Shown one piece after another: positions 6,276-52,655 of a stretch of DNA of 53,373 nt. Source of the DNA: Polyangiales bacterium (GTDB lineage Bacteria > Myxococcota_A > Polyangia > Polyangiales > Ga0077539); NCBI GenBank assembly GCA_044229975.1, contig JBGARZ010000030.1, forward strand, positions 1 through 53,373. Direction: 5' to 3'. The notes beneath the pieces are model-generated. The model made no database searches, had not been told where the DNA came from, and saw nothing but the letters and a program-made list of their open reading frames with translations. The position numbers and the translations under genes were made by a program. Within the stretch, counting starts at the first letter, position 1. Each line of letters opens with the position of its first letter.

Positions 6276-7869
6276 GTAACAGTTCAGGCGTGTGCCGCAG
6301 CCTCGACGGGCGATCGGCTCTTTGCTGATCGGGTACGAGCAGCCCGATAGGCCTCGATGAGCACCGCGGGTGGTGTCGCGGCGGGACCCGCTCGAGTGCG
6401 CGAGCGCAGCGCCTCGACCACCACGGCCTCGAAGCTCACCCCGAGTTGCTCGCAGGTTCGCGCGACCGTCCGCAGCACCATGTCGCGATACAGGCCGCCC
6501 AACGTGCGGTTCTGTTGGACGCGGCGGCGGTCGATCACGGCGGGGCGCAGCGCCCGCTCGGAGCGGTTGTCCGTGGGCTCCATCTCCCCCGTCCGGTCCC
6601 ACAGGAAGGTCACCCACAGGTCCACCTCGCGATGGATCCGCTTCGCCATGCGCACGCAATCCGGCTGCGTCCACGGTCGATCGGCCAAGGCCAGCAGCTC
6701 CCGCCGTGCCCGCGCTCGGTACTGCAACCACGTCGAGGCCGCCAGCGTGTCGCGCCGTGCATACAGCCCGATCATCCACGACAGGTGATCGCGCAGCGGC
6801 CCCATCATCGCCGTGACCTCGGGCTCGCCCGGGTGCTGCGCCAGCAGGTCGCGCGCGGCGCGTAGCGGGTGCGCCAGGCAGCGCTGGTCGCCCGCGTGGG
6901 CGACATGCCCGAAGCGCTCGGCCTCGTCGCTCACCACGCTCCCCTCGATCCGATCGCCCAGCACCGCCCGCGGCACCAGGGCCGAGCCCGACGGGTCGAT
7001 CCAGTAGACGGTCAGTCGCGGCGTCGTGAACGCCCACAGCACGGCGCGCTCGCCGTCGAACCGCCAGGAGGTCGTGTCCTCGTACACGACGGGCTCGTGG
7101 GTGACCTGCTCGACGATCCACCAGAAGGTGGGCACCAGCGCCGCCGCCGTGCGGTCGAGCATCGCCACGATCTGCCCGCCCGCCACCGGCCACCGCCACA
7201 CCGAGCGCGTGAAGGTCTCCAGGTCCCCGACCGTGGCGCCCATCGAGGCGTGCTGCACGGCGAGCGTCGCGTGCGCCCGCGGGCCGTAGTCCGAGTCGGG
7301 CAGCACGAGGGGCGACGGCGGCTTCACGCGACGTCGGCAATGGGGACACCAGCCGTGATGGAGCACGTGCCGCAGGACGTGCAGCGCCCGCTCGGCGGCC
7401 TCGAACTCGAAGCGCTCGGTGCTACGCGCCGTGGGCTCGACGTCCCCACCGCAGCGCGGGCATGCCGTGACGGCGTGCTCCCGCGTCTCGTCGACGCGCT
7501 CGGGGCGCGTGCGCGCATGGCCCTGGTGGCCGCGTTGGCCGCCGCGCGGTCGGCCCGAGGGGGGCCGCGTCGGCGGAGGCGTCCCGCGGCCCCCGCCGCG
7601 ACCGCCCGAGCCCAGACGGCTCTTGAGGTCCTCGACCTCGCGGGTCAGCGCGAGCACCGCCTGCCGAAGCGCCGCGTTCTCTTCGCGCAGGGCCGCGTTC
7701 TCCTCGCGCAGTCGCGCGTTCTCGGCACGGGCGTCCGCGAGCTCCGATTCCAGCGTGGCGACGCGAGCAACCAGCTCGCGGATGGGCGAGAGGGGATCCA
7801 CGGCGACGAGGAACACCTGGTTCCCCGCCCCGCGGCGTCAAGTCACGCGGACCGGGGCTGAACTGTTAC
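6276..7869 (-). mobile_element. IS66-family single-ORF insertion sequence (ISBst12-like)
   Basis: 12-bp TIRs GTAACAGTTCAG (6276-6287) / CTGAACTGTTAC (7858-7869) with the IS66 GTAA terminus; duplicated TACGTCT at 6265-6271 and 7870-7876. Confidence 0.88.
6284..7816 (-). CDS. IS66-family transposase (510 aa)
   Basis: N-terminal leucine zipper, GGQRGHQGH, CPRCGG and CPHC zinc-finger motifs, EDTTSW, QRCLAH, PTDNRSERALRPAV; stop codon lies inside the TIR. Confidence 0.9.
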   Translation of the reverse strand: MFLVAVDPLSPIRELVARVATLESELADARAENARLREENAALREENAALRQAVLALTREVEDLKSRLGSGGRGGGRGTPPPTRPPSGRPRGGQRGHQGHARTRPERVDETREHAVTACPRCGGDVEPTARSTERFEFEAAERALHVLRHVLHHGWCPHCRRRVKPPSPLVLPDSDYGPRAHATLAVQHASMGATVGDLETFTRSVWRWPVAGGQIVAMLDRTAAALVPTFWWIVEQVTHEPVVYEDTTSWRFDGERAVLWAFTTPRLTVYWIDPSGSALVPRAVLGDRIEGSVVSDEAERFGHVAHAGDQRCLAHPLRAARDLLAQHPGEPEVTAMMGPLRDHLSWMIGLYARRDTLAASTWLQYRARARRELLALADRPWTQPDCVRMAKRIHREVDLWVTFLWDRTGEMEPTDNRSERALRPAVIDRRRVQQNRTLGGLYRDMVLRTVARTCEQLGVSFEAVVVEALRSRTRAGPAATPPAVLIEAYRAARTRSAKSRSPVEAAAHA

Positions 7870-39845: not shown

Positions 39846-40856
39846 ATGAGCCATCTTTCGATCGATCTTGTTGGCCTGAAGCCGGCGCCCGTCGCCGATG
39901 CCGAGCGCGTCGGCGCTGTCGGTCGGGTAGACCTCGGACCCAAGTGCGCCGGGGACTCTGCGTTCACCGCGAGGATGCGTTTTCACCAGAGCCACTACCG
40001 CGCGACCGTGCTCGGGGTGCCCTTCGGCCACGGGCCGAACGCAGGTGACGCCAGTTGCTACGGCAACATGCTCGACCCGGTCAGCGGTCTGGCGGGCCTC
40101 AACTACCTCTCGCCGCTGATCTTCGCGAGGGTGAAGGACCGTCTCGCCGCGGGCGGTGGCGTTCTCGAACCGTACCGACTCCTGCACAACATGCTGTCGA
40201 GCCAGCCCATGTGCTTCAACCTCTTCGGCCCGCTCGTCGACGCGCCGGAGCGTGCGACCCGCCTGCTTGGGGCGCTGATTGGTGACGATCTCGTCCGCGT
40301 GAAGCGCGTCGCGATCGAGTGGGCCCCAGCGCCCGCCCACGAGTACCTCGACGACCGCACGGCCTTCGACGCGTTCGTCGAGTATGAGCGCCGCGACGGG
40401 ACGTGCGTCGCGTTCGGGGTGGAGACGAAGCTGACCGACTCGTTCTCCCAGAGGCCCTGCGACGGCGAGAAGTACCGGCGCTGGATGCGCGGCGCCGGCT
40501 CCCCCTTCCGGGAGGACGCCCACGGCGACGTTGCTGGCGCCCGATACAACCAGCTCTGGCGCAACCACCTGCTCGCGATCGCCGCGCGGGATCACGGCCG
40601 CTCGCCCTACGGCGCGGCGCGCAGCGTCGTGGTCCACCACGCGCTCGATCACCACGGCACCAACGTCATCGGTGGCTACCGGAGCCTGTTGCGACCGGGC
40701 GACACGACCTTTGACGCGTGGACGCTCGACCGGGTCATCGGGGCCTTCGAGCGGGTCGCGGTCGGCACCGACGAGGTGGCGTGGCTCGCCGCGTTTCGCG
40801 CCCGCTATCTTGATCTGTCGAAGAGCGAGCACGCCTGGAACCACCGGCACGTCTGA
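39846..40856 (+). CDS. Putative PD-(D/E)XK restriction-endonuclease-fold protein, PGN_0703-like (336 aa)
   Basis: GAGGAGG RBS; NMLSSQPMCFNLFGPL, DRTAFDAFVEY..GVETKLTD, YNQLWRNHLLA. Confidence 0.75.
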   Translation: MSHLSIDLVGLKPAPVADAERVGAVGRVDLGPKCAGDSAFTARMRFHQSHYRATVLGVPFGHGPNAGDASCYGNMLDPVSGLAGLNYLSPLIFARVKDRLAAGGGVLEPYRLLHNMLSSQPMCFNLFGPLVDAPERATRLLGALIGDDLVRVKRVAIEWAPAPAHEYLDDRTAFDAFVEYERRDGTCVAFGVETKLTDSFSQRPCDGEKYRRWMRGAGSPFREDAHGDVAGARYNQLWRNHLLAIAARDHGRSPYGAARSVVVHHALDHHGTNVIGGYRSLLRPGDTTFDAWTLDRVIGAFERVAVGTDEVAWLAAFRARYLDLSKSEHAWNHRHV

Positions 40857-40883
40857 GACGCCAGAGGGGCAACCGCGGGTCCG

Positions 40884-42434
40884 TCAGGTGAGGCCGAGTT
40901 GACCGAGCACCCAGCGCCCGAGGGCGCCGCTCTCGGACTCACCTGGTCGCAATCGCCAAAGGCCGAGGCCGTGGCTCGCGAGGAAATCCTCGGCGGCCCA
41001 GGCGACGCAATCGTCCGCGATCTCGGGCACCAGCAGCAGTCCGGCTCGGGGTCGGCCGCCGTGATCTCGCAGCAGCAGAGCGTCGCGGTAGACGTGCAGC
41101 GACGCGAAAGCCTCGGTGATCGATGCCCGCTGCACGCGGTACTTCGCGTCGAGCACCACCCAAGCGCCTTCGGCGTCGCCCGCGCGCCACTGCACGACGA
41201 GGTCGGGCCGACGCTCGCCCGTCAGCGCGCGTCGTGTCCTTCCGGCCTGGGCGCTGAAGGTGTGGTTGTAGCCGATGACGAGGGTTCCGCCGGCGTGCGC
41301 GCGGTGCAGCGTGAGGCCGCCGAGGTCGTGCGCGAGCAACGTGTCCTCGCCGAATGCACCATGTGCCCACGGGGCCGTGCCAATTGCCGCGTCGAGCGAT
41401 CGCCGCACCGCGAGAAGGCACCAGAGTTCGTACAGCTCGAAGCTGGCGCGTACCGGCGCGAGCGCGTCACCCGATGGTGAGTCGGCCGAGAAGCGGGCGC
41501 CCAGGATACGTCGCGCGAGCCGCATCACCCTGGCGTAGCGGGGCTCGTCCTGGAGCGTAAGCATCGCGCCCTCGTCGGGCGGAGCTGCGGGGAGGTCTGC
41601 GAGGAAGGTCGACGCGACGAGGTGGCGCAGTCGCGCGCTGGCCCGTTCGAGCGACCGCGCGAGGGCGAGGCACCAGGTCGCGGTGTCGTCCATCAAGCCC
41701 GACGACGCCTTGCGCAGGGCGGGAGCGAGCGGATCGATGGCCGCGGCGACCCGCTCGGCGTACCAGCGGACAGCACGGTTGGCCGGGTGGTCGACCGTCG
41801 CGTCCGGTACCCGCGTCGGCACCCACGGGTCGCCCGGCGACTGCGCGCCCGAGGTGCTGACCGTCAGGGTGGCTGCCACCGCCGGGTGACGCGCGACCCA
41901 CCGCAACGTCTCCGGCCTCACCCGACGGATGGCGTGCATGCGCCGATCGACCGGGCGCTCGCGGTCGAGCGTCGTCGGCGCGCGCACCACGGCGGCGATG
42001 GCCTCCAGGAGCGGGTCGAGCAGGGGCTCCATCGCGGCGACGGCGAGGCCCGCCTGGACGCCGTCGAGGCTCACGCTGCCGCCGCTCGCGGTCGAGAGCC
42101 CGAGCAGCAGGTCGGGGAGCCAGTCCGCGAGGTCATCAACGAGCGCGGACCACGCGCCGACGTCGAGTTTCTCGGCGCGCGGCCGAACCTCCACGGGTTG
42201 CCGCAGGGTCATCGGGGGGGCATCGAGGACGAGCTCCATCCGACCGACGGCGTGACCGACCCGGAGAAGGAAGGCGGTGTTGTCGTCGCTGCGCTCCAAC
42301 GCGACCGGTCCGAGGTGGCAGGAGGTCACGCCCTCGGTGCCGAGCAGATGGAGCCGATACTCGCGGTTCTCTTCGAGGACGAGGACATCCTCGTCGAAGG
42401 GCGCCGCGCGGCCCTCGTGATCGACGACTCTCAC
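40884..42434 (-). CDS. mcrC: McrC-like DUF2357/PD-(D/E)XK nuclease (516 aa)
   Basis: TVDHPANR, ELYELWC, RRPDLVV..VLDAKYR; start is 1 nt after the McrB-like stop. Confidence 0.8.
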   Translation of the reverse strand: MRVVDHEGRAAPFDEDVLVLEENREYRLHLLGTEGVTSCHLGPVALERSDDNTAFLLRVGHAVGRMELVLDAPPMTLRQPVEVRPRAEKLDVGAWSALVDDLADWLPDLLLGLSTASGGSVSLDGVQAGLAVAAMEPLLDPLLEAIAAVVRAPTTLDRERPVDRRMHAIRRVRPETLRWVARHPAVAATLTVSTSGAQSPGDPWVPTRVPDATVDHPANRAVRWYAERVAAAIDPLAPALRKASSGLMDDTATWCLALARSLERASARLRHLVASTFLADLPAAPPDEGAMLTLQDEPRYARVMRLARRILGARFSADSPSGDALAPVRASFELYELWCLLAVRRSLDAAIGTAPWAHGAFGEDTLLAHDLGGLTLHRAHAGGTLVIGYNHTFSAQAGRTRRALTGERRPDLVVQWRAGDAEGAWVVLDAKYRVQRASITEAFASLHVYRDALLLRDHGGRPRAGLLLVPEIADDCVAWAAEDFLASHGLGLWRLRPGESESGALGRWVLGQLGLT

Positions 42435-42435
42435 G

Positions 42436-45294
42436 TCACGACCAGAAGCGCGTCACGCCCGTCGACTGGAGGCGTTGCTGCATCACGCGAAGTTTCTCCG
42501 ACGACCGGGTCAGGCCGTGCTTCGCCGTGATCTCCGAAGCGACCTTGAGGGCCCGTTGGAGGTCGGGGTCCTGGTCGCCGCGGAGGCGCGGCAGGACCTT
42601 GGAGAAGACCGCCATGTCAATCGCCGCGGACTCGGACTCGCCCGCCGCGAGCGAGCCGAGGGTGAAGTCGAGCACCTCGCCCGCGGTGCGGTAGCCGAAG
42701 TGGCGTCTCGCGGGTCGGAGCGCGTCGTGGAGCGCGATCAGGCACGCCTCGGTCGTGGCGTGTCGCTGCGAGCGGCGCTCGAAGAAGTGGGGGAGGTCGA
42801 CGTCCCAGAACTCGAGCGTGAACGCGCGGTCGAGCACCTTGTCGGAGAAGGGGTGGGTCGACTCGTCCATGTTGACGGTGCCCGCGAGGAAGAGGTTGCG
42901 CGGCCACGTGACGCTCGGCGGGACCCCGTTCACCGCCTCGGGCGAGGCATGGAGCGCGATGGGATCGCCGGTCTCCATCGCTGACAGGAGCGGCGCGAGA
43001 TAGCGCTCGACCCGCGCGAGGTTCATCTCGTCGAGGATGAGGAAATACGGGTTCGCGCGGTCGGCATCTGCTGCGAGCAGGAGCTGGAGCGCGGGCTCGA
43101 TCTGATAAGTCGGGTCTTCGTGGAGTGGGTTGAAGTAGCCGAGCAGCCCGGACGGGTCATGCCAGTCGGGCGACACCGCGACGACCGCGAGGTGGTGATC
43201 GGCGTCGAGACCGCGGACTCGACACCAGGTGCGGGCGTAGTGGCGGAGGACGGCGGTCTTGCCCGTACCCGAGAGGCCAGAGAGGAGGATGAAGTGCTTG
43301 GAGGGATGGCAGGTCCAGGCGACGTGGAGGGAGCGAAGCGTGCTGTCGTCGAGCACGAAGGCGCGGGTCTCCGCGTCGTTGCGGAAGGCCGCTGTGAGCT
43401 CGTCGAAGGACGGCGCGGCGACGGTCTCGGGCACGCGTGTCGAGGTCGGCGTCGGTCCGATCGCTGCGGCGGTTGCAGCCACCGCAGGGTCGGGCAGCGC
43501 TTCGGGCAGCCGGGCGTGCCACTGCACACCGTACTCAGTGAGTCGGAGGTGGTCCGTCGGAAGCACCTCGATGAGGCCGAGATCGACGAAGAACGCGACC
43601 AGCGAGTTCGGAGCGAAGTCCGACGTCCAGGCAGGGTACCGCTGACGGATTCGACCGAAGAGGCTCTGCTTCGACATGCCCTCTGGTGATTCGACGAGGC
43701 AGCGCAGCAGCAGCGCGAAGCCGTACGTGCTCACCAGCAGCTGCTCCACCAGCGGGGCGTCGTCGCCGTCGAGGATCAACAGTCCACCAGGGGACGGTCG
43801 ATAGAGACCTCCTTCGCGCAGTAGCAGCTCCATCCCGTAAAGGCGCGAGACCGAGTACCCGATCGTCTTCGCGGAGGCCGACACACCAGCAGCGCGGACC
43901 TCGTCGACGAGCACCTCGACGCTCTGTCCCGGCAGGGCCGCACGGAGGATGTCGCGCCACGTTGCGGCGTATCCGCCGATGGCGCCGACGCCACGATACT
44001 GTCGCCCGATGGGCCACAGTTCGAGTCGCGGGGCGTTGGAGGTGTCTGACGGCGGCGGTGGTGGGGTCTCGCTGCCGGGGGGCACGATCGAGCCCAGCAC
44101 TGGCGGCTGCTGCTCCTGAATCCGCCACGCGAAGCGCGAGCGACGGACGTGCTCCGCGAGCGTGGCCTCGTCGCCGAGCACGCTCCGCAGGCGCGCTCGA
44201 ATCTGCACCTGCTCGGCGATCGCCCCGCCGGAGGGGGAGCGGCCGAGCAGGCGCCGGACAGCCTTCGCGCGGGCGTCGCTCTGTAACAGGCACGTCAGCT
44301 GCGTCGGGATGAGGATCGCGAAGGTACGGAGCAGTTTGGCCGTCGGCCGCGCGCGCACGCCGAGGCCGGTGATGAGACGTCCCATCACGGCGTCGAATTC
44401 CGCTTGGATGGTCCGCGCACAGGCATCGGCGTCGCTCGGCCATTCGCGATGACGGAGACCGTCGAGGCGCTGGAGAATCTCGGGGTCGTCGAAGGCCGCG
44501 CTGACGTTGATGGACTCGCCCATCCCCGCGCTCGCCACGCCCTTGCCGCTCCAGAGTCGCTGCTGGATGGCGCGCGTGGCGAAGCTCGCCGGGTCGGCCG
44601 CCGCCACCTCCGTCACGAGGCGGGCCCCGTCGGCGATCCACGGGGCGGTCGCCGCGTCGAAGGTGCGCCAGGCTTCGAGGAGCTCGGCGTCGCTCCAGCG
44701 ACGATCGCCACTCTCGTCGCGGGGGGGAAGGAGCGGGGGGATCGCCTCCTCCGCGAGGCCGTAGTCGGGCCGAGGGAGCGCGCGTCCGGTCTCGGCTTCG
44801 ACCAGTGTGACAGCCTCGGTCGAGAAGCTGGGGTAGTACCCCGTTCGAGACGCGACGGTCTTCGCGGCGCGATCGATGGCGGCCTCCAGGGCAGGACGAA
44901 TGCGGGGCAGGAGTCGGGCGAGTGCGTCGGCGGGCATCGACCGAACGATGACCTCCGGGGCGATCGTGAAGGGCTCCACCAACGACTCGTGAGAGAGCCC
45001 GGTAAAGACCTCCTCAGCAGGCGAATCGAGGGCAGACTCGATGAGGGCGATCTTCGCTTCGCCGTTGTCACGGAAGCGGAGCACAAGGAGCTGTCCGACC
45101 GAGAGGGTCAAAACTGCGCCCGAGGAGAGGGTGAGCACCCACCGGGCGGAACCGAGCGCGTGTGCCCGTGTGATGGCCTCGGCGAGGCAACCCATGCACG
45201 CAGTTCGCACATCGGCGGAGGGGAACCAGTCCTCGATTGGTCGCGAGAGCGGGGTCGATACCGAAGCGACGGTCGTATGTTGATCGGGGGTCAT
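42436..45294 (-). CDS. mcrB: McrB-like AAA+ GTPase with long N-terminal specificity region (~952 aa)
   Basis: ILLSGLSGTGKT, VSPDWHDPSGLLGYFNPL, LDEMNLARVERY, GTVNMDESTHPFSDKVLDRA, FGYR, KVLPRLRG. Confidence 0.85.
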   Translation of the reverse strand: MTPDQHTTVASVSTPLSRPIEDWFPSADVRTACMGCLAEAITRAHALGSARWVLTLSSGAVLTLSVGQLLVLRFRDNGEAKIALIESALDSPAEEVFTGLSHESLVEPFTIAPEVIVRSMPADALARLLPRIRPALEAAIDRAAKTVASRTGYYPSFSTEAVTLVEAETGRALPRPDYGLAEEAIPPLLPPRDESGDRRWSDAELLEAWRTFDAATAPWIADGARLVTEVAAADPASFATRAIQQRLWSGKGVASAGMGESINVSAAFDDPEILQRLDGLRHREWPSDADACARTIQAEFDAVMGRLITGLGVRARPTAKLLRTFAILIPTQLTCLLQSDARAKAVRRLLGRSPSGGAIAEQVQIRARLRSVLGDEATLAEHVRRSRFAWRIQEQQPPVLGSIVPPGSETPPPPPSDTSNAPRLELWPIGRQYRGVGAIGGYAATWRDILRAALPGQSVEVLVDEVRAAGVSASAKTIGYSVSRLYGMELLLREGGLYRPSPGGLLILDGDDAPLVEQLLVSTYGFALLLRCLVESPEGMSKQSLFGRIRQRYPAWTSDFAPNSLVAFFVDLGLIEVLPTDHLRLTEYGVQWHARLPEALPDPAVAATAAAIGPTPTSTRVPETVAAPSFDELTAAFRNDAETRAFVLDDSTLRSLHVAWTCHPSKHFILLSGLSGTGKTAVLRHYARTWCRVRGLDADHHLAVVAVSPDWHDPSGLLGYFNPLHEDPTYQIEPALQLLLAADADRANPYFLILDEMNLARVERYLAPLLSAMETGDPIALHASPEAVNGVPPSVTWPRNLFLAGTVNMDESTHPFSDKVLDRAFTLEFWDVDLPHFFERRSQRHATTEACLIALHDALRPARRHFGYRTAGEVLDFTLGSLAAGESESAAIDMAVFSKVLPRLRGDQDPDLQRALKVASEITAKHGLTRSSEKLRVMQQRLQSTGVTRFWS

Positions 45295-45557
45295 GTCACA
45301 GCTCGGTGGTTTGGAGTTGCCCGGAGTGGCCAGGGCGATCCACAGGTGAGATCGGCGCGGTCCGGAAGCATCCGCAAGGAGTGCCGCAACCTTCGTCCCT
45401 CCAAAGGTGTCGAAGCGTAGCGTCGTTCCACTTTGGGGCCGCGATGGTTTCACCGTCGGCAGCGGCACGCCAGCGGACGTGAACGATGGGCGTGTGGACG
45501 GCGCGCCACGGCCGCGAACCGGTTGGGGACCCGATCAACGTCGCTGATACTCCGCCG

Positions 45558-46919
45558 ATGAGCACGATCCCACGCAAGCGTCCGAAGGCGGCCAGCGTCC
45601 CGCCCTTCGCGAAGATCCTGCGCCGCCACCTCGGATGCGATCCAGCGTCCGTCGCCATCGTCGGGGACAGCTTCCCGTTGCGCGCAATCGGTGACCTCCA
45701 ACTAGCTGTGGACGACTGGCTACAGGGGCCTGGTCGTCGTCGAGAGATGGTCGGCGTGGTGACCGACCGGCACGTGGTTCGCCTCGGCGCGCTGGCGTCG
45801 CCACCTCCGTCGGAGCGCAAGCACGGCTGGGCGGCGGACGTCGGCCCCGTCGAGTACAGCGCCGTGTCCCTTGCCGACGGCGGCTCGCTCGCGAGCGTCG
45901 AGCGCGGTCTGCTACTCCTCTCGGACGGTGACGCGCGACTCGCGATGCTGGTCGCCGGACCGTGCGGCGAGCCGTACATCCACCAGGTGCGCGTTGAGGT
46001 CGGCGCGGCGACCCAACCCGAGGCCGAGCGGCTGCTCCAGCAACTGCGCGACGGGATGCGTCGCCGAAGCATCTTCCGCGGGCGCTCGCTCAGCGTCGGC
46101 GCAGACCGGCAGGGCGAACTGCTGGTGAGCTTTCAGGCGCTACCCAAGGTCGCGCGCGAGGACGTGATCCTCCCGCCCGGGGTGCTGGAGCGCATCGAGC
46201 GCAACACGGTGCGCTTCACGCAGCGCGCGTCGGCCTTGCACGCGATGGGGCGCCATCTGAAGCGGGGCCTCCTGCTCTACGGGCCGCCTGGAACCGGGAA
46301 GACGTTCAGCGCGATGTTTCTCGCGAGCCAGATGCCCGACCGCACAGTGCTGATGGTGACGGGGCGGGCAGTCGGACTCATCGAACAGGTCGCCGTGATG
46401 GCCCGCCAGCTAGCGCCTTCGACGGTAGTCTTCGAGGACGTCGACCTCATCGCCGAGGACCGCCGCACCACGCAGAACCCGTGCGCCACTCCCGTGATGT
46501 TCGAGCTGCTCAACGCGATGGACGGCCTGGCCGAAGACGCCGACGTGCTCTTCGTCCTGACGACCAACCGCCCGGAGGTGCTTGAGCCCGCGCTCGCGGC
46601 CCGACCGGGGCGCGTCGATCAGGCGATCGAGATCCCGCTGCCCGATGAGGACTGCCGCGACCGGCTCATCGCGCGTTATGGCGAGGGTATGCGCCTCGCA
46701 CTGACCGACCGCGCGGCTGTCATCACGCGCACCAAGGGGACGAGCGCGGCGTTCATCAAGGAGCTGCTGCGTCGGTCGGCGCTCATTGCCGCGGACGCCT
46801 CGCCTGGATCGAGTTCGCCCGAAGTGAACGACGGGCATGTGCGCGACGCGATGCAGGAGATGCTCGTGGACGGGGGCAGCATGACGCGCACGCTGCTCGG
46901 GGTGGGCGGAAGCCGGTAG
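45558..46919 (+). CDS. Classical-clade AAA+ ATPase (FtsH/Cdc48-like module; ~453 aa, start uncertain)
   Basis: RGLLLYGPPGTGKT, VVFEDVD, LLNAMDG, TTNRPEVLEPALAARPGRVD (SRH). Confidence 0.88.
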   Translation: MSTIPRKRPKAASVPPFAKILRRHLGCDPASVAIVGDSFPLRAIGDLQLAVDDWLQGPGRRREMVGVVTDRHVVRLGALASPPPSERKHGWAADVGPVEYSAVSLADGGSLASVERGLLLLSDGDARLAMLVAGPCGEPYIHQVRVEVGAATQPEAERLLQQLRDGMRRRSIFRGRSLSVGADRQGELLVSFQALPKVAREDVILPPGVLERIERNTVRFTQRASALHAMGRHLKRGLLLYGPPGTGKTFSAMFLASQMPDRTVLMVTGRAVGLIEQVAVMARQLAPSTVVFEDVDLIAEDRRTTQNPCATPVMFELLNAMDGLAEDADVLFVLTTNRPEVLEPALAARPGRVDQAIEIPLPDEDCRDRLIARYGEGMRLALTDRAAVITRTKGTSAAFIKELLRRSALIAADASPGSSSPEVNDGHVRDAMQEMLVDGGSMTRTLLGVGGSR

Positions 46920-47013
46920 CAAGAGAGCCAAGATCGGTGCGTCCCATGGCCTCGTCGGATCGACGTTGAAGGTTCGAGGGTCGCCGTGAGAGGTTGAGGG
47001 AGGGAGTCAATCA

Positions 47014-48591
47014 ATGGGTGGACACGTCTTCGTCGTCCGGGGCGACGTTCAGAAACTTCGATGCGATGCCCGCCTGATCCCGGCATACGACGCCAGCACA
47101 CCGGACGTGAGCTGGTTTCACCCTGACGAATCCGAGCTGCACGCGAAGCCTGCGGACGAATCGTGGAAGGGCGGCGAGGAGCGGGTGCGCTCTCTCGGCT
47201 CGAGCAAGCTGGGCCCTGCCCTCTGGGTGGCGAAGGTCGGTTTCGACCGGTTCACCCAACTATCCAGGGCGATGGAGGGCGTGTCGGAGTTCCTGATGCG
47301 GGCGGCCGCGGCCCTGAAGAGCGCTCCGAGGGTGAGTGGACGCAGCCAACCCCTGATCGCGTTGCACGTTGTCGCTACCGGAAGGAAGAACGCCGCCCAC
47401 CGCAAGGACGACGCGATCGTCGCGCTGCTCAAGTGCGTCGCCGCGTGCGTTGCGGAGCACGACATGGATGTCGTCATCGTCGCGAGGGAGGAGGAGACCT
47501 ATGCGGCGTTGCAGGTCACTCGCTCCATGCAGCGTGGCGGCGTCTTGCCGACGCTCGACCCCTCGCTGCACGCATTGGCCCGTGAGCTCGCGGTCAAGGC
47601 TCGCGAAGGGAATTTGTCTGTCCTGGTGGGGGCAGGCTTGAGCATGAACGCCGGCCTGCCGAACTGGATAGGCCTGCTCAGCAGCGTCGCACAGGGGGCG
47701 AAACAACGTGCACCCGAGCATGGCGAAGACCTGATGCGCTATGCCGCGTGGATCGAGCAGAGCATGGGGCCGCGGGCCTTCCGCACGGCGATCGCCGACC
47801 AATGCCGCGCTACGAGGTACGCACTCGGGCACGCGCTGCTCGCGTCGATGCCGGTCCGCGAATTTGTCACGCTTAACTACGATGTCCTTCTCGAAGAGGC
47901 GGCTGTGGCAGCGAAGGCACCGCTCGTGGTCCTCCCCCACGGTCGCGTCAGTGCCGGGCAACGATGGCTGCTCAAGCTCCACGGGTCGGTTGATCGATGT
48001 GACGACATCGTCATCACCGAACGCGACTACCAGCGCTTCGACGACTGGCGAGCGGCCTTCCGTGGCGTCGTGGAGGCTCAGCTCATTACCCGTCACATGC
48101 TTTTCGTCGGGTTCGGCATGGCCGACCCCAACGTCGCCCGCGTGCTGGAGTCCGTGGCGCGCGCCGCCCGCCGCGACGAGGGCAAGCAAGGCACCTCGGT
48201 TGGGACGCTTCTGCATTTCGATGCGATCGCGGATCAGGAGAAGCAGAAGTACCCGCTGAGCTTCGTGCGCGTCGGGGAGGAGGAGACGAGCATCGCTCTC
48301 CGCGCGCGGCAGACCGAGATCCTGCTCGACGAAGTGGCGCGCCTCGCGGAGGACGGAACCCACCACCTCCTCGACCGGAGCTTCGACGGACTGCACCGGG
48401 CTGAAGTGGACGTGCGTGAGAAGGTCACAGCCCTCCTCACCAGCCTCCACGGCGCGCACCGAAATTCGCGTCTCCGTCGCGAGATCATGGAGCGCCTCCG
48501 CCCACTCATGGGCGGCGATCCCGAGCTCACCCGATTGTTCGACCCTGCACCCGACGAGCCCTCCGATGACCCGCTGCATCCTCGTCGGTGA
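47014..48591 (+). CDS. SIR2-like (SIR2_2) NAD-utilising domain protein with N-terminal Macro-like domain (525 aa)
   Basis: VGAGLSMNAGLPNW, VTLNYD, LLKLHGSV, MLFVGFGMADPN. N-terminus HVFVVRGDVQKLRCDARLIP resembles the first strands of a Macro domain (weaker call). Confidence 0.82.
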   Translation: MGGHVFVVRGDVQKLRCDARLIPAYDASTPDVSWFHPDESELHAKPADESWKGGEERVRSLGSSKLGPALWVAKVGFDRFTQLSRAMEGVSEFLMRAAAALKSAPRVSGRSQPLIALHVVATGRKNAAHRKDDAIVALLKCVAACVAEHDMDVVIVAREEETYAALQVTRSMQRGGVLPTLDPSLHALARELAVKAREGNLSVLVGAGLSMNAGLPNWIGLLSSVAQGAKQRAPEHGEDLMRYAAWIEQSMGPRAFRTAIADQCRATRYALGHALLASMPVREFVTLNYDVLLEEAAVAAKAPLVVLPHGRVSAGQRWLLKLHGSVDRCDDIVITERDYQRFDDWRAAFRGVVEAQLITRHMLFVGFGMADPNVARVLESVARAARRDEGKQGTSVGTLLHFDAIADQEKQKYPLSFVRVGEEETSIALRARQTEILLDEVARLAEDGTHHLLDRSFDGLHRAEVDVREKVTALLTSLHGAHRNSRLRREIMERLRPLMGGDPELTRLFDPAPDEPSDDPLHPRR

Positions 48592-49729
48592 CCTCGGCCC
48601 CAACCCCGCGCCATTGGCGGAAGCACTCTGGTCGCTCGCTCGCCACCATGACCTCCGGACGCGGGCGGCCTTCCTGCTCACCTACGCCCGCGGCGCCCAC
48701 TATCTCGATCGGGAGTTCCTCGCGACGGGCGGCGCGCTCGACCAGTTGCACGCTGTCCTCGGTCGCGACGTCCTGCCGCGCGACGCGCTCTTCTTGCACC
48801 GCGTCCAAGCCGACGACGGCGCCGCGATCGACGACGACTGGGAGCCCGCCCACACCCTCGCCTGGAACGAGGCCCGTTGGCGGTCCGCGCTCGCCGCGCT
48901 GAAGACCGCCGGGAACGACCCCGTCGTCTTCACCCTCCTCGGTGGTCGACGGCGCAGCATGAGTGCCCTCGACGCCGTCATCTTCCAACTGCTCGCACGC
49001 CCGCAGGACCGTCTGCTCGACGTGCGCGTGAGCGACACCCGCGTTGAAGGCGGCAGCGGGTTCTTCTTCCCCGAGCAGCGCAACCCCCTGGTGCGTACCC
49101 GCGGCGGTGACGTCGTCGACGCGCGGACGGTGACGGTGCGACTGGTCGACCTCCCCGTCCCGAAGCTGCGACGCCTCCTGGGCGAGCGCGTTCCGGCGAC
49201 CTACGCCGAGGCCCTGGTGCGCGCCGACGTCGCCGTCGATCGCACGCCGCCGATGCTCACCATCGACCTCGCAGCCCGAACCGTACGCGTGGGTGAGCAC
49301 CTGTTGGCGCTCCCGGCGCGGCAGTTTGCCTGGTACGCAACGCTCGCGTCGGATCGCTGCGCCGGCGCAGGCGACGGCACCATCTCCGCCGACGACTTCG
49401 AGGCACGCCTGCACCGAACGCTCCATCGGATGAAGTCGCTCGACCCGAAGTGGATGGCGACCTCGGGTCCCTTGGTGAAGCTGCTGGCGGTCCCGGCTGC
49501 GGCGGCGAGCGGCTCGTGGGTGGCGATCGCGCCCAACGAGGAGTGGAGCAGCCTGCGCTCGACCACCCGGAAGATGGTGAAGGACGCCGTCTCCGAGCTG
49601 GGACTCGTCGCGTCGGTGGCGTCACTGTTCGTTCCCACCCACCTCATCACCCACGCTGCCAAGGTGAAGCTCACGCTCTCCCGGCTGCCTCTCGACCCGT
49701 CGCGCATCGAGATCCTCCCGGCGCCGTAA
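48566..49729 (+). CDS. NE0113/Csm6-like CARF-domain protein with C-terminal winged HTH (387 aa)
   Basis: ILVGDLGPNPAPLAEALWSL, FTLLGGRRRSM, QLLARPQDRLLDVRVS, GFFFP, VRLVDLPVPKLR follow the Cas_NE0113 motif order; then LTIDLAARTVRVGEHLLALPARQFAWY. Confidence 0.75.
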   Translation: MTRCILVGDLGPNPAPLAEALWSLARHHDLRTRAAFLLTYARGAHYLDREFLATGGALDQLHAVLGRDVLPRDALFLHRVQADDGAAIDDDWEPAHTLAWNEARWRSALAALKTAGNDPVVFTLLGGRRRSMSALDAVIFQLLARPQDRLLDVRVSDTRVEGGSGFFFPEQRNPLVRTRGGDVVDARTVTVRLVDLPVPKLRRLLGERVPATYAEALVRADVAVDRTPPMLTIDLAARTVRVGEHLLALPARQFAWYATLASDRCAGAGDGTISADDFEARLHRTLHRMKSLDPKWMATSGPLVKLLAVPAAAASGSWVAIAPNEEWSSLRSTTRKMVKDAVSELGLVASVASLFVPTHLITHAAKVKLTLSRLPLDPSRIEILPAP

Positions 49730-49791
49730 CCTTACGAAGCGCTGACTTCTCTGCCGGGGACGCCCATCAGTGTGGGGCAGAAGGAGTCCCC

Positions 49792-50556
49792 ATGAACCAA
49801 CTCGCTCCGCACGAAACCCCCTGGCTCGCCGTCGCCGACCTGCACGGTCACCGCGCTCACTTCAACGCCCTGCTCGGCTGGGCCGAAGCGGAGTTCGGCG
49901 CGCAGCTCCACGTCTGCACCCTCGGCGACTACGTCGACAATGGCCGCGAGATTCCCGCGCTGCTCGACGACCTCATCGCCCTGCGTGAGCGCCTCGGGGA
50001 GCGCTTCGTTCCCATCCTGGGCAACCACGATCTCGCCCTTCTCCGTGCGCTCGGCTGGCCCGGCGCGGAGCCCGACGAGGTCTGGTACCAGCGCTGGAGT
50101 CGCAACTACTGGAACGCCGGGTTCGGCACCCCCGCAGCCTACGGCGCACGGACGTTGACGGAGTTCGTCGCGCGCTTCCCGGCGCACCATCGCACCTTCC
50201 TGGAGTCGCTGCCCTGGTTGCACGACACGGGTCGGTGGCTCTTCGTACACGCCGGCATGGAGCCTGGACCGCTCGCCCCGCAGTGCGCCGCGCTCGCCGC
50301 GAAGATCCTGCCCGCACAGCACGAGTGGCTGCCGACGCAGCTGCGCGACAAGGCGCTCTCCAAGACCGCCGATGCCGCGTGGGATCGCACCGTCGTCAGC
50401 GCGCACAACAAGCACCTGGGAGGGGCGCGCTTCGAGGGGCCCAACCGGATCTGCCTCTCGGGCGAGGTCGACGCGACGGGCATCTTGCGGGCGGTGGTGC
50501 TGCCCGCGCGCACCTTCGTACGAGTGGCGGCCGACGGTCACGTGACGTTGGACTGA
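49792..50556 (+). CDS. Calcineurin-like metallophosphoesterase, PPP/ApaH/PrpA-like (254 aa)
   Basis: ADLHG, LGDYVDNG, LGNHD, FVHAG, SAH; AAGGAG RBS. Confidence 0.9.
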   Translation: MNQLAPHETPWLAVADLHGHRAHFNALLGWAEAEFGAQLHVCTLGDYVDNGREIPALLDDLIALRERLGERFVPILGNHDLALLRALGWPGAEPDEVWYQRWSRNYWNAGFGTPAAYGARTLTEFVARFPAHHRTFLESLPWLHDTGRWLFVHAGMEPGPLAPQCAALAAKILPAQHEWLPTQLRDKALSKTADAAWDRTVVSAHNKHLGGARFEGPNRICLSGEVDATGILRAVVLPARTFVRVAADGHVTLD

Positions 50557-50568
50557 AGGGGACTCGAC

Positions 50569-51477
50569 ATGGACGCACTTCACGGATTCGAAGGACTCTT
50601 CAACGTGGGCGAGCCGAGCGGCGCCGGGGGATTGAAGGTGTTCCCGCTCTTCCCGACGGGGCCGGTGGTGCTCCCCGTGCGGACGTTGCGCGAGGTGATC
50701 GCCGCCGGAGGCGCTCGCGTGGAGGAGACCGATGCGGGGGAGGGACCGTGGTTTCGCGCGTTGTCCCTGCTCAATGAGAGCGCGCAGACGGTGCTGGTGA
50801 GCGACGGCGATCTGCTGACGGCCGGTTTGCAGGATCGCATCGTGGACACTCCGCGCGTGGTGCGCCCGGGAGTGCGAGTGACGTTGCTGGTGTCGTGCGT
50901 CGAGGCGGGCCGTTCGTCGCGGGGCGAGCGCGCCGACCTGGTCGTCGCCGAGCGTGCGGCCGAGCCCTCGGTGCGGCGCAAGCGGGCACTGCACGCGCTC
51001 CGCGGGGAGCGACCCAGTCAGGAGGAGACATGGGCGCACGTCGCGGAGCTGCGAGGCGGCCGCGGGCACCACGACGGGTCGGGTTCGTTGGCGGAGCGCT
51101 CGGGGCTCGACGAGCGGGCGGCGGCGACGGCGGCGCTGCTCCCTGCGGCGTATGGGGCGACGGGGCTGGCGGTCGCGCGCAACACCACGCGAGGCGCGCG
51201 GGTGGTGCTGCTGGAGTGGTTCGCCGACCCGGTGGCCTGCGCGAGCGCGTGGGAGTCGCTGGTGCGCGGCGTCGCGATGGACGTGCACCAGCCGACGGCC
51301 GACGTGAGGATCAGCCGCACCGAGCTGCGCAGCGTGGTGGGGAGGGTCAAGACTGCGACGGCACGGGAGGAGGTGTTTGCGGAGGGCGATCGGGTGACTT
51401 GGTTGTCCGAGGGCGCGATGGTGGGCCACGCAGTCGCGCTCGGTGAGCGGCTCGCGCACGTGGCGTTGCTGGCGTGA
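50569..51477 (+). CDS. ARPP-1/DUF6569-like protein (302 aa)
   Basis: GLKVFPL..RVEE..LLNES..GDLLTAGLQDRIV..VSCVEAGR..SQEETWAHV matches the family pattern as I recall it. Confidence 0.7.
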   Translation: MDALHGFEGLFNVGEPSGAGGLKVFPLFPTGPVVLPVRTLREVIAAGGARVEETDAGEGPWFRALSLLNESAQTVLVSDGDLLTAGLQDRIVDTPRVVRPGVRVTLLVSCVEAGRSSRGERADLVVAERAAEPSVRRKRALHALRGERPSQEETWAHVAELRGGRGHHDGSGSLAERSGLDERAAATAALLPAAYGATGLAVARNTTRGARVVLLEWFADPVACASAWESLVRGVAMDVHQPTADVRISRTELRSVVGRVKTATAREEVFAEGDRVTWLSEGAMVGHAVALGERLAHVALLA

Positions 51478-51488
51478 GAGGAGACGGG

Positions 51489-52655
51489 ATGTTCGAGCTG
51501 CTGTTTGCATTGGGGAATGACCCTGCCGCGGAGTCGGAGCTGGTCGACGGGCTGAACGCCCACACCGAGCGCGTGAGGGCCTCGCTGGGCGGGGGCGAAC
51601 GCACGTGGGTGTCGGCGGCCGAAGAGGAGGTCGCGGCCGACCCGGCGGGGACTATCTCCTTCGACGGGCGCGGCCGGGCGACGGTGCGTGCCCTGGGGCG
51701 GACGTGGGCCGCGGGGTGCTTCGAGATTCCGACCATCGGGGCGCTGCGCGACCGTGCCTCGCGCCGCGCGCTGCGGGCGGATGTGGGTCCGCATCGCCTA
51801 TGGGTGCTCGACGGGGAGAGCGTGGCAACGGACATCGGCGCGCTCCAGGCCCACGCGCCGGATGGAGCGCTCTTCCAGGCGGCCTCCCAGTTCAATTGCC
51901 TGGAGTCGCCCGGGGCGTACGTGACGCCTGTGATGGCGTATCTGGGTGACCCGACCCAGGGACCACGCGCGTCGATCTCGGCCTTTCCGGCGACGCTCAT
52001 CCGGCACTACGCGGCGCCCTCGAAGGATGGACGTCGCTTCACGCAGTCCACCCACCGGGAGCAGATCGACCTGCTCGCGGACGTGTGCGGTCCGCACGTG
52101 GCGTGCGTCGAGAGTGGGTACCTCCGCGACCGCTCGATCTACGACGCCGGGGCCTTCGCGGAGGCACTCCAGGCGCGCTTCGACGCGGTGCGCTTGGGCC
52201 TCCACGACGACGTGGAGGTTGTGCTCGGTGCCAACTGGGACGGCGCCGTCGCGACGCCGCACCGCATCGCGCAGGTGTTCACGTCGACCTTCGCGGGTGG
52301 GATGTACAGCTCGCTCGCGAGTCCGGGGGAGGCGTATCGGATCATCACCCGGCAGCTCCTGCGCGCGGCCTACCTCGGAACACTCCTGGGCGCGATCGCG
52401 GTCGGGCGCCGCGTGGTGGTGCTGACCCTCATCGGCGGCGGGGTGTTCGGCAATCCCATCGGATTGATCTGGGAGTCGATTCTGTGGGCCTTGGAGGAGG
52501 CCACGCGCGTGGCGCCGGTCGCGCTCGACGTGGTGGTCAATGGGCGCGCGCTGGCGCAGAGCATCGAGCCGACTGAACTCGCGGGTGAGGCCGCGCGCCG
52601 CGGCGGCGTGATGGTGGAGCTGGGCCGCACCGGAGGCGCGGTCGTGTTGCGATAG
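51489..52655 (+). CDS. Uncharacterised ASQFN/TQGP-motif protein, predicted Macro/PARG-like fold (388 aa)
   Basis: GAGGAG RBS; ALFQAASQFNCLE, DPTQGP, AAYLGTL, VVLTLIGGGVFGN (like the GxGxFG diphosphate loop of PARG/Macro proteins). Confidence 0.6.
   Translation: MFELLFALGNDPAAESELVDGLNAHTERVRASLGGGERTWVSAAEEEVAADPAGTISFDGRGRATVRALGRTWAAGCFEIPTIGALRDRASRRALRADVGPHRLWVLDGESVATDIGALQAHAPDGALFQAASQFNCLESPGAYVTPVMAYLGDPTQGPRASISAFPATLIRHYAAPSKDGRRFTQSTHREQIDLLADVCGPHVACVESGYLRDRSIYDAGAFAEALQARFDAVRLGLHDDVEVVLGANWDGAVATPHRIAQVFTSTFAGGMYSSLASPGEAYRIITRQLLRAAYLGTLLGAIAVGRRVVVLTLIGGGVFGNPIGLIWESILWALEEATRVAPVALDVVVNGRALAQSIEPTELAGEAARRGGVMVELGRTGGAVVLR

Follow-up and report, generated by a model that had tools for sequence, protein, structure and literature searches.

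A CRISPR-orphan CARF–winged-helix protein as predicted regulator of a putative ADP-ribose eraser operon in a Polyangiales bacterium

The locus described here comprises five co-oriented open reading frames (ORFs), A to E, at positions 47014–52655 of the forward strand of contig JBGARZ010000030.1 from a Polyangiales bacterium (assembly GCA_044229975.1). The window is this whole 53-kb contig (53,373 nt) of a 10-Mb genome with 71% GC; G000 denotes the source genome, other G numbers the compared genomes, and L numbers loci or contigs. The genes encode a Macro–SIR2 protein (A), a CARF protein with a winged helix-turn-helix (wHTH) domain (B), a metallophosphoesterase (C), an ARPP-1 protein (D), and a Macro protein resembling bacterial PARG in its fold (E; Table 1). 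As judged from sequence comparison with related genomes, the conserved unit is the CRISPR-orphan CARF-wHTH gene and not the five-gene set. The reading that we favour, and hold to be moderately probable, is a two-part cassette in which B acts as a ligand-gated activator of a C-D-E ADP-ribose eraser unit through a 12-bp dyad at the B/C junction. New here are this dyad before the first eraser gene and a CARF-wHTH protein as the predicted regulator of parts typical of ADP-ribosylglycohydrolase (ARG) systems.

The CARF-wHTH protein and its neighbourhood

In the predicted structure of B (predicted local distance difference test score, pLDDT, 94.9), residues 1–228 match the CARF domains of Cad1, Crn1 and Csm6, the best being Cad1 (Z 14.2, root-mean-square deviation (rmsd) 3.2, 184 residues aligned). 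Residues 229–377 match OmpR/PhoB/ToxR DNA-binding domains (Z 8.8, rmsd 2.3, 89 aligned), more than 15 of which scored Z 7–8.8 over this segment, with many tied rows; Pfam gave no match for this winged-helix part. At the sequence level, B matched Cas_NE0113 (PF09623; E 6.8e-9, 36.3 bits vs a cut-off of 23) and the CARF5 model of PADLOC (E 1.2e-25), and it carries the motifs GPNPAP (11–16) and GGRRR (126–130). Its score on the CRISPR ring nuclease model TIGR02584, 55.1 bits vs a cut-off of 80.65, lies below the family threshold. The profile of B found no match among PDB sequences, and no relatives were found in IMG/VR. B is not linked to type III cas genes, as no cas10 (TIGR02577) or RAMP genes were found in the 93%-complete genome G000. 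Modelled in this way, B is a predicted one-component transcription factor.

The clade of B was found in 25 genomes of the Myxococcota group, with 6, 9 and 9 coming from successive searches and one more, G044, through its neighbours. A class-wide search (2/401) gave no further genome of the clade, and two weak matches, in G410 and G131, proved to be canonical CARF5 proteins and were set aside as outgroups. The clade carries GGRRR where these two carry GGRKT, and forms a single branch against them in a tree of 30 rows with only two outgroups. An ARG, ARPP, phosphatase (R-P, inositol monophosphatase (IMPase), calcineurin-like or PHP) or Nudix gene adjoins the CARF gene in 24 of the 25 genomes. 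Within two genes of it lie ARG, ARPP and C-type phosphoesterase genes (9/25 each), Macro-SIR2 (4/25) and E (3/25); the phosphoesterase is placed behind ARG by fusion in three cases, and G044 shows only its first residues. No SIR2 relative of A was seen beside the other 21 CARF loci, some of which are cut by contig ends. Among 16 metagenome contigs with the clade, nine show downstream DNA, and ARG or ARPP is present there in eight. Of 16 carrier genomes (77–99% complete), four have RAMP genes, and none were found in the other 12.

In close relatives of the window locus, the corresponding position is occupied by ARG, R-P-ARG or IMPase-ARG. In G000, four ARG genes lie on other contigs, and no PF03747 match was found in A–E. 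One of the genome's contigs bears a stand-alone IMPase-ARG fusion (G000:C38 868408-870300; L161:6409-8301) with no dyad upstream, which is 50% identical to the fusion that follows CARF-ARPP in G003.

The 12-bp dyad and the predicted promoter

The dyad, CGTAACCTTACG, is the only perfect N3-AA-NN-TT-N3 dyad in the window, and the genome holds 130. The scanned interval opened 15 nt ahead of the stop codon and closed 45 nt past it; loci truncated upstream of the stop, a locus with an internal stop and both outgroups were excluded. A perfect dyad was present at 15 of 32 CARF 3' ends, in 11 of 27 lineage groups, and at four of eight loci fetched after the motif had been defined. In the controls, perfect dyads were seen at 2 of 152 other gene ends of the same loci, one of the two being itself the site upstream of an X-Nudix-type gene that is described below; a sample of 160 of the 480 genome chunks gave 1 in 2,380 gene ends, and TAA-ending genes gave 0 of 88. 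The stop codon is not the source of the motif, because many copies lie 6–35 nt past a different stop.

One CARF subclade has no dyad after the CARF gene, and there an X-Nudix-type gene precedes CARF. In this rearranged subclade, a dyad lies 65–74 nt upstream of the X-Nudix-type gene in six of six loci (four perfect, two with two of the three flanking pairs), compared with 3 perfect and 27 near-perfect sites among 2,383 controls. The dyad thus marks the first eraser gene and keeps a fixed place in two gene orders. Of note, the operon in this subclade is headed by an unannotated domain of ~110 residues, fused to or beside Nudix.

Across 24 sites, collapsed by lineage and chosen for having the dyad, the half-sites vary symmetrically: the pair is C/G in 11, T/A in eight, A/T in one and G/C in one, and is mismatched in three. 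TA or CA begins 27–28 nt past the dyad in 18 of these 24 sites, whereas other offsets have a mean of 2.9 and a maximum of 9. The element at this offset is often TACAT or CAnnnT, with no -35 consensus. In the window, the same offset defines a candidate internal promoter (Table 1) with a predicted transcription start, read from the sequence, near 49777. A dyad centred near -45 beside a weak -35 is the activator geometry of OmpR/CRP-type promoters, and the position of the present dyad, with its centre near -45 and a weak -35 slot, is therefore activator-like. The dyad splits the operon into A-B and a C-D-E unit that is probably controlled by B.

Other identities for the dyad were considered and rejected. 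An RNA hairpin or terminator is not supported, as the region does not form a stable RNA structure (z -1.18, 0.38, 0.31). Integron attC sites have the consensus RYYYAAC...GTTRRRY over 57–141 bp; this was dismissed by eye, the arms of the dyad being 2 bp apart and the dyad occurring also away from stop codons. The NrtR box is GT-N7-AC; the spacing in the dyad is one shorter (GT-N6-AC or GC-N6-GC), and no NrtR is encoded in the window cassette. A genome-wide regulon was likewise rejected, because the four ARG genes of the genome are not preceded by a dyad; GTAA-N2-TTAC has only five sites in 10 Mb, none of them before these genes.

The eraser genes C, D and E

The original prediction had described A to D as Macro-SIR2, CARF-wHTH, phosphoesterase and ARPP-1 proteins, and hidden Markov model (HMM) matches, profiles and structure models bear these assignments out. 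C matched Metallophos (PF00149, E 2e-10), with weak ApaH and PPP matches, and has the metal motifs DLHG (16), GDYVDNG (45) and GNHD (77). Its relatives, 44–58% identical, are fused to ARG downstream of CARF genes, and the copy in G002 is broken at a poly-C run, probably an assembly artefact. D matched ARPP-1 (PF20208, E 1.4e-35) and keeps the invariant residues Q88, R90, C110, E112, R115, Q151 and W155 (C110 and Q88/Q151 in nine sequences).

E gave no HMM match in Pfam, PADLOC or NCBIfam, and neither its sequence nor its profile found a real match among PDB sequences. Its predicted structure (pLDDT 94.3) has a Macro fold nearest to bacterial PARG (Foldseek E 1.6e-7; Z 15.4, rmsd 3.2, 223 aligned), the next Macro scoring Z 12.6. 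The best structural matches are the enzymes of Thermomonospora curvata (3SIH) and Deinococcus radiodurans (5ZDA; TIGR02452), with which it shares the GxGVFxN loop; the proteins are 14–16% identical, and E has no match to PARG HMMs. E had been proposed to be PARG-like, which stands for the fold and fails for the catalytic motif: GGG-x6-8-QEE, invariant in nine PARGs (TIGR02452/PF10021), is absent from E and its family. The family invariants are instead AASQFNxLE (131–139), DxTQGP (154–159) and GxGxFxN (316–322), with E139 and D154 invariant across 40 diverse sequences. TQGP was matched to the AQEE of PARG by eye; hhalign aligned the GxGVFxN loop alone. On this model, E is a predicted ADP-ribosyl hydrolase; it stands where ARG stands in related loci and may replace it. 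C and E are probable erasers. A canonical bacterial PARG match also exists elsewhere in G000, on C2.

The E family is large, with 1,096 matches among 7,995 candidates scored, and the nearest named relatives of E are Myxococcota/Polyangiales metagenome genomes. Fusion to an R-P phosphatase, as is frequent for ARG, was seen in five of 79 loci with an E relative. No relatives were found in INPHARED phages. Family members occur on 32 IMG/VR contigs (L227–L258), several of them labelled as giant-virus metagenome-assembled genomes and mostly 25–32% identical, and one Atlas cluster of the family is half viral. At L041:1362-4995, an E relative closes a gene cluster that also holds NAMPT and PRPP synthetase, a setting of NAD salvage.

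The Macro-SIR2 gene A

A matched SIR2_2 (PF13289, E 2.9e-23) and has an N-terminal Macro domain at residues ~3–170; the first 161 profile positions match macroH2A1.1 (E 2.2e-8). The best solved matches of its 29-sequence profile are ThsA and DSR2 structures (E 5e-38 to 6e-28). The SIR2 motifs are GAG (206–208), TxNYD (286–290) and KLHG (321–324), with G206, G208, T286, N288, D290 and H323 invariant in the 29 sequences; H323 is by analogy presumably the catalytic histidine. The Macro glycine loop, GTGxGG in distant relatives, is ATGRKN in A (120–125). On sequence grounds, A is a predicted NADase.

The SIR2 domain of A groups with the NADases ThsA of Thoeris and DSR2, whose motifs it keeps, but A has an N-terminal Macro domain instead of SLOG or the DSR2 sensor, and the PADLOC ThsA match spans the SIR2 part only. 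Thoeris pairs a SIR2-SLOG or TM-Macro ThsA with a TIR ThsB; the window has no such pair, with no match to TIR ThsB among its 30 ORFs scanned.

Macro-SIR2 occurs in five copies among 31 genomes of the family, and all five touch such a cassette: three are co-oriented, one is divergent from CARF-ARPP (G044), and one is fused (G015). The fused copy (L098:2740-6132) is a single 1130-residue chain, IMPase-ARG-Macro-SIR2, which puts eraser and NADase together. Outside the family, Macro-SIR2 was found in six of 301 genomes of an actinobacterial centre's phylum and in one Minicystis genome. One of these seven loci (L220, actinobacterial) abuts an NrtR-ARPP-ARG/R-P cassette with TY-Chap3, and the other six, three of which represent one lineage, have no such neighbours. 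Macro-SIR2 is thus a recurrent accessory, not core, and A is, on present sequence comparisons, best described as a lineage-specific accessory NADase outside the conserved core.

Occurrence of the five-gene array

The original prediction had supposed a co-conserved five-gene system, a view that the neighbourhood comparison does not sustain: the whole A–E array was found only in G000, G002 and G005, three genomes of one genus, in two different chromosomal settings. Conservation of the five genes beyond the genus was not found, and A–E as a widespread system was accordingly rejected. Among the 79 loci with an E relative, three, in G002 and G005, carry CARF, ARPP or SIR2 relatives. The proteins of the G002 and G005 loci are 80–93% identical to those of the window, except A of G005 at 72%, and the G005 array is split over two contigs inside D. 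Taken singly, A occurs in 5, D in 6, C in 7 and E in 15 of the 31 family genomes. Remnants of the cassette at a second shared site, namely bits of C and D with a whole E in G002 (L003:9665-11167) and only the last 44 codons of E in G003 (L213:7995-8126), are signs of gain and decay.

Table 1. Positions of the features discussed, in window coordinates unless an L number is given.
Feature	Position	Strand	Description
Leader of gene A	46946..47013	+	Conserved in the DNA alignment of G000, G002 and G005
Gene A	47014..48591	+	525 aa; Macro fused to ThsA/DSR2-type SIR2 domain
Gene B	48566..49729	+	387 aa; CARF5 (Cad1/NE0113-like) plus OmpR/PhoB-type winged helix
Dyad CGTAACCTTACG, predicted operator of B	49725..49736	.	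12 bp; overlaps stop codon of B; 67 nt upstream of C
Predicted internal promoter	49742..49770	+	Fixed offset from dyad; weak -35 slot CTGACT 49742-49747, -10-like CATCAG 49765-49770
Gene C	49792..50556	+	254 aa; calcineurin-like (PPP/ApaH-type) metallophosphoesterase
Gene D	50569..51477	+	302 aa; ARPP-1
Gene E	51489..52655	+	388 aa; unnamed Macro family, bacterial-PARG-like fold
X-Nudix-type genes	L155:6239-7003, L157:5754-6575, L158:555-1331, L195:2538-3289, L201:2136-2909, L153:2544-2885		~110-aa domain fused to or beside Nudix

Reading frames and genomic setting

The five genes follow one another at junctions of -26 (A/B), 62 (B/C), 12 (C/D) and 11 nt (D/E), exactly as first predicted. Their frames are supported by the codon-position bias, with a GC content of 0.81–0.89 at third vs 0.46–0.54 at second positions, and ribosome-binding sites are present for C, D and E. 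The leader of A (~70 bp) is common to G000, G002 and G005 despite three different upstream neighbours and marks the left edge of the cassette; it gave no match to the sigma70 consensus. An AAA+ ATPase gene (45486-46919; weak IetA/CDC48 matches), co-oriented and 94 nt before A, is placed outside the cassette, because it is absent from that position in G002 and G005.

The window was said to lack a CRISPR array, cas10 and CD-NTase, which was corroborated by a scan of 30 window ORFs, with no match to cas10 or CD-NTase, and by a repeat search that found no CRISPR-spaced repeats. Two SMODS nucleotidyltransferase genes lie on other contigs (G000:C29 112921-113409 and C8 44056-44478). The window is a defence island. 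A class I DISARM system (drmD, drmMI, drmA, drmB, drmC) occupies 12088-33274, with zacA-zacB-zacC and an uncharacterised 460-residue gene between drmMI and drmA. At 39846-45468, a REase-ARP gene (PF22558/PF20796), the Pfam name of which suggests the REase of ARG-centred systems, accompanies a convergent McrBC-like pair; the two recur beside the cassette of G005 (L087). An IS66-family transposase lies at 6284-7816, and the copies of a 29-bp direct repeat, at about 11726 and 11852, immediately precede drmD.

Proposed mechanism and alternative readings

In the mechanism that we propose, transcription of A and B would start at a promoter in the leader. The CARF dimer of B would bind an adenylate ligand, for which ADP-ribose or one of its phosphorylated derivatives is the likeliest candidate, and B so loaded, sitting on the dyad, would switch on the internal promoter that serves C-D-E. 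The role of ARG would fall to E, which would free ADP-ribose from modified molecules; C would take off phosphates or cleave the pyrophosphate, and D may act on the ribose, as proposed by Iyer et al. (PMC9503650). A would contribute NAD+ depletion as a second-line effector, and the ADP-ribose that it makes could reach B and so amplify the signal. That B binds the dyad is highly probable, and that it activates rather than represses, given the dyad centre near -45 and the poor -35, is probable. An ADP-ribose-type ligand is a more tentative assignment, made because the controlled enzymes are all predicted to act on ADP-ribose and because NrtR, the regulator that B replaces, senses ADP-ribose according to Iyer et al. 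(2022; PMC9503650). The purpose may be to undo ADP-ribosylation by phages or rival toxins; a possible anti-phage role is suggested by the island context and the 2022 prediction.

Several observations weigh against this cassette reading. The seventh rearranged locus, in G386, has no upstream dyad, and 10 of the 32 CARF 3' ends lack a dyad with even one symmetric flanking pair; six of these belong to the rearranged subclade, and G376, L169, L171 and L173 have none. The loci are kin, and the significance of the dyad enrichment is accordingly overstated. In the window, the -10-like CATCAG lacks the final T, no sigma70 consensus was found in the promoter region, and none of the four ARG genes elsewhere in G000 is preceded by a dyad. 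E has no PARG QEE motif, and hhalign links it to bacterial PARG at the GxGVFxN loop only (probability 40%). It is mostly solitary, as the flanks of 76 of the 79 loci are free of CARF, ARPP and SIR2 relatives, and its neighbours (99 of the 124 listed ones were scanned, plus a further selection) are mostly unrelated genes. The window also has a sirtuin and no ARG, both contrary to the definition of Iyer et al.

The model first put forward, an integrated circuit that needs all five genes, with SIR2 as the source of an ADP-ribose signal, B as its sensor and C-D-E as its erasers, now appears improbable. The 26-nt overlap of A and B, with frame and order kept in G002 and G005, would fit it, as would the contact of every family Macro-SIR2 gene with such a cassette and the actinobacterial copy abutting NrtR-ARPP-ARG (L220); but only 4 of 25 CARF genes, all from a single family, have SIR2 next to them, most Macro-SIR2 loci examined outside the family lack such neighbours, and in this lineage the glycine loop in the Macro domain of A has degenerated. 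What survives of the circuit is its ADP-ribose theme, the CARF-wHTH regulator and the probable erasers C and E, and not one conserved chain of producer, sensor and eraser. For the ligand of B, the main alternative is an RNA end with a cyclic phosphate, as sensed by RtcR, the CARF domain of which binds tRNA halves ending in this group (PMC7790460). Four kinds of phosphatase recur in CARF loci, and Macro domains act on ADP-ribose-1''-phosphate (PMC9503650), both in keeping with RNA ends; however, neither RNA ligase nor RtcA nor KptA was found among the CARF neighbours scanned, and B is CARF5-like rather than RtcR-like and has no AAA+ domain, so that we regard this ligand as more improbable still.

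The least probable of the alternatives makes B a stand-alone ring nuclease or a sensor of cyclic oligoadenylates (cOA) or cyclic dinucleotides, its neighbours chance accretions of the island and the dyad another factor's site or without role. The best family matches of B are indeed Csm6/NE0113 ring-nuclease models (TIGR02584, below cut-off), the genome of this defence island has its two SMODS genes, and four of the 16 carriers have RAMP genes. Set against these are the ADP-ribose theme shared by 24 of 25 neighbourhoods, the dyad that follows the CARF operon in two gene orders, the 12 carriers without RAMPs, and the GGRRR branch, distinct from the GGRKT of two canonical CARF5 proteins, on its own against those outgroups. 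The cassette reading can also be taken further: the B clade would then be CRISPR-independent CARF5-OmpR activators that sense ADP-ribose or its phosphates and bind NGYAA-NN-TTRCN, the first CARF to read NAD+ breakdown and not oligoadenylates or RNA ends, wiring a Macro-gated SIR2 NADase to a new class of PARG-fold hydrolases with swapped glutamate/aspartate, shared with giant viruses. As a whole, this extension is rather unlikely.

Relation to known systems

The composition of the locus had been thought to be without named precedent. Its parts list in fact largely matches the ARG-centred counter-ADP-ribosylation systems predicted, not tested, by Iyer, Burroughs, Anantharaman and Aravind in 2022 (PMC9503650, section 3.8), which include ARPP, calcineurin-like phosphatases and Macro. 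As described there, these systems are defined by ARG without a coupled ADP-ribosyltransferase (ART) or sirtuin, and their listed regulators, an optional feature present in over 42%, are Nudix or WYL-HTH proteins. ARPP, a calcineurin-like phosphatase, Macro and a one-component nucleotide-sensing transcription factor in one operon are common to both: C is of the phosphatase types concerned (R-P, calcineurin-like, HD or HAD), D is an ARPP with the conserved Cys and Gln, and the fold of E provides the accessory Macro. The regulator in the window, in contrast, is neither Nudix nor WYL-HTH but a CARF5-OmpR wHTH protein, probably an activator and not a repressor; the ARG core, found in 9 of 25 related CARF loci, is missing, A is a SIR2 protein, and a PARG-fold Macro closes the operon. 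Because there is no ARG and a sirtuin is present, we do not file the locus as a member, and on the evidence of its relatives it appears to work like one. None of C, D, E and the related ARG fusions is covered by a PADLOC model, and the ARG-containing system of PMC13069673 is, from what that source describes, a different one.

Among CARF regulators, Csa3 and MM_0565 also combine CARF with a winged helix and are dimeric DNA binders (PMC7465815); they are CRISPR-linked, with Csa3 binding cA4, whereas B is CARF5/NE0113-like, has an OmpR-type wHTH and lies away from cas. NE0113-family proteins without effectors have been predicted to regulate transcription (PMC4012209). RtcR, like B, is a CRISPR-independent CARF sensor and activates a repair operon, but it is a sigma54 AAA+ activator of RNA ligase/cyclase genes (PMC7790460), while B has no AAA+ domain and fronts ADP-ribose enzymes. 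No published CARF factor over ARG/ARPP genes, and no account of the dyad, was found in the literature, with an earlier mention possible in a figure or the supplement of Iyer et al. (2022) or in CARF classification work. A CARF sensor over ADP-ribose clean-up genes is thus probably an undescribed use of a sensor known from CRISPR signalling.

Significance

For counter-ADP-ribosylation operons, the locus supplies a regulator that can be named, a site defined to 12 bp and a predicted transcription start, so that a reporter construct can serve to look for the inducer among phages, toxins and small molecules. E is an obvious target for enzymology, as it represents a large unnamed Macro family with a PARG fold and different conserved acids. 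If true, a CARF domain with a ligand that is neither cOA nor RNA would widen the known chemistry of the CARF superfamily.

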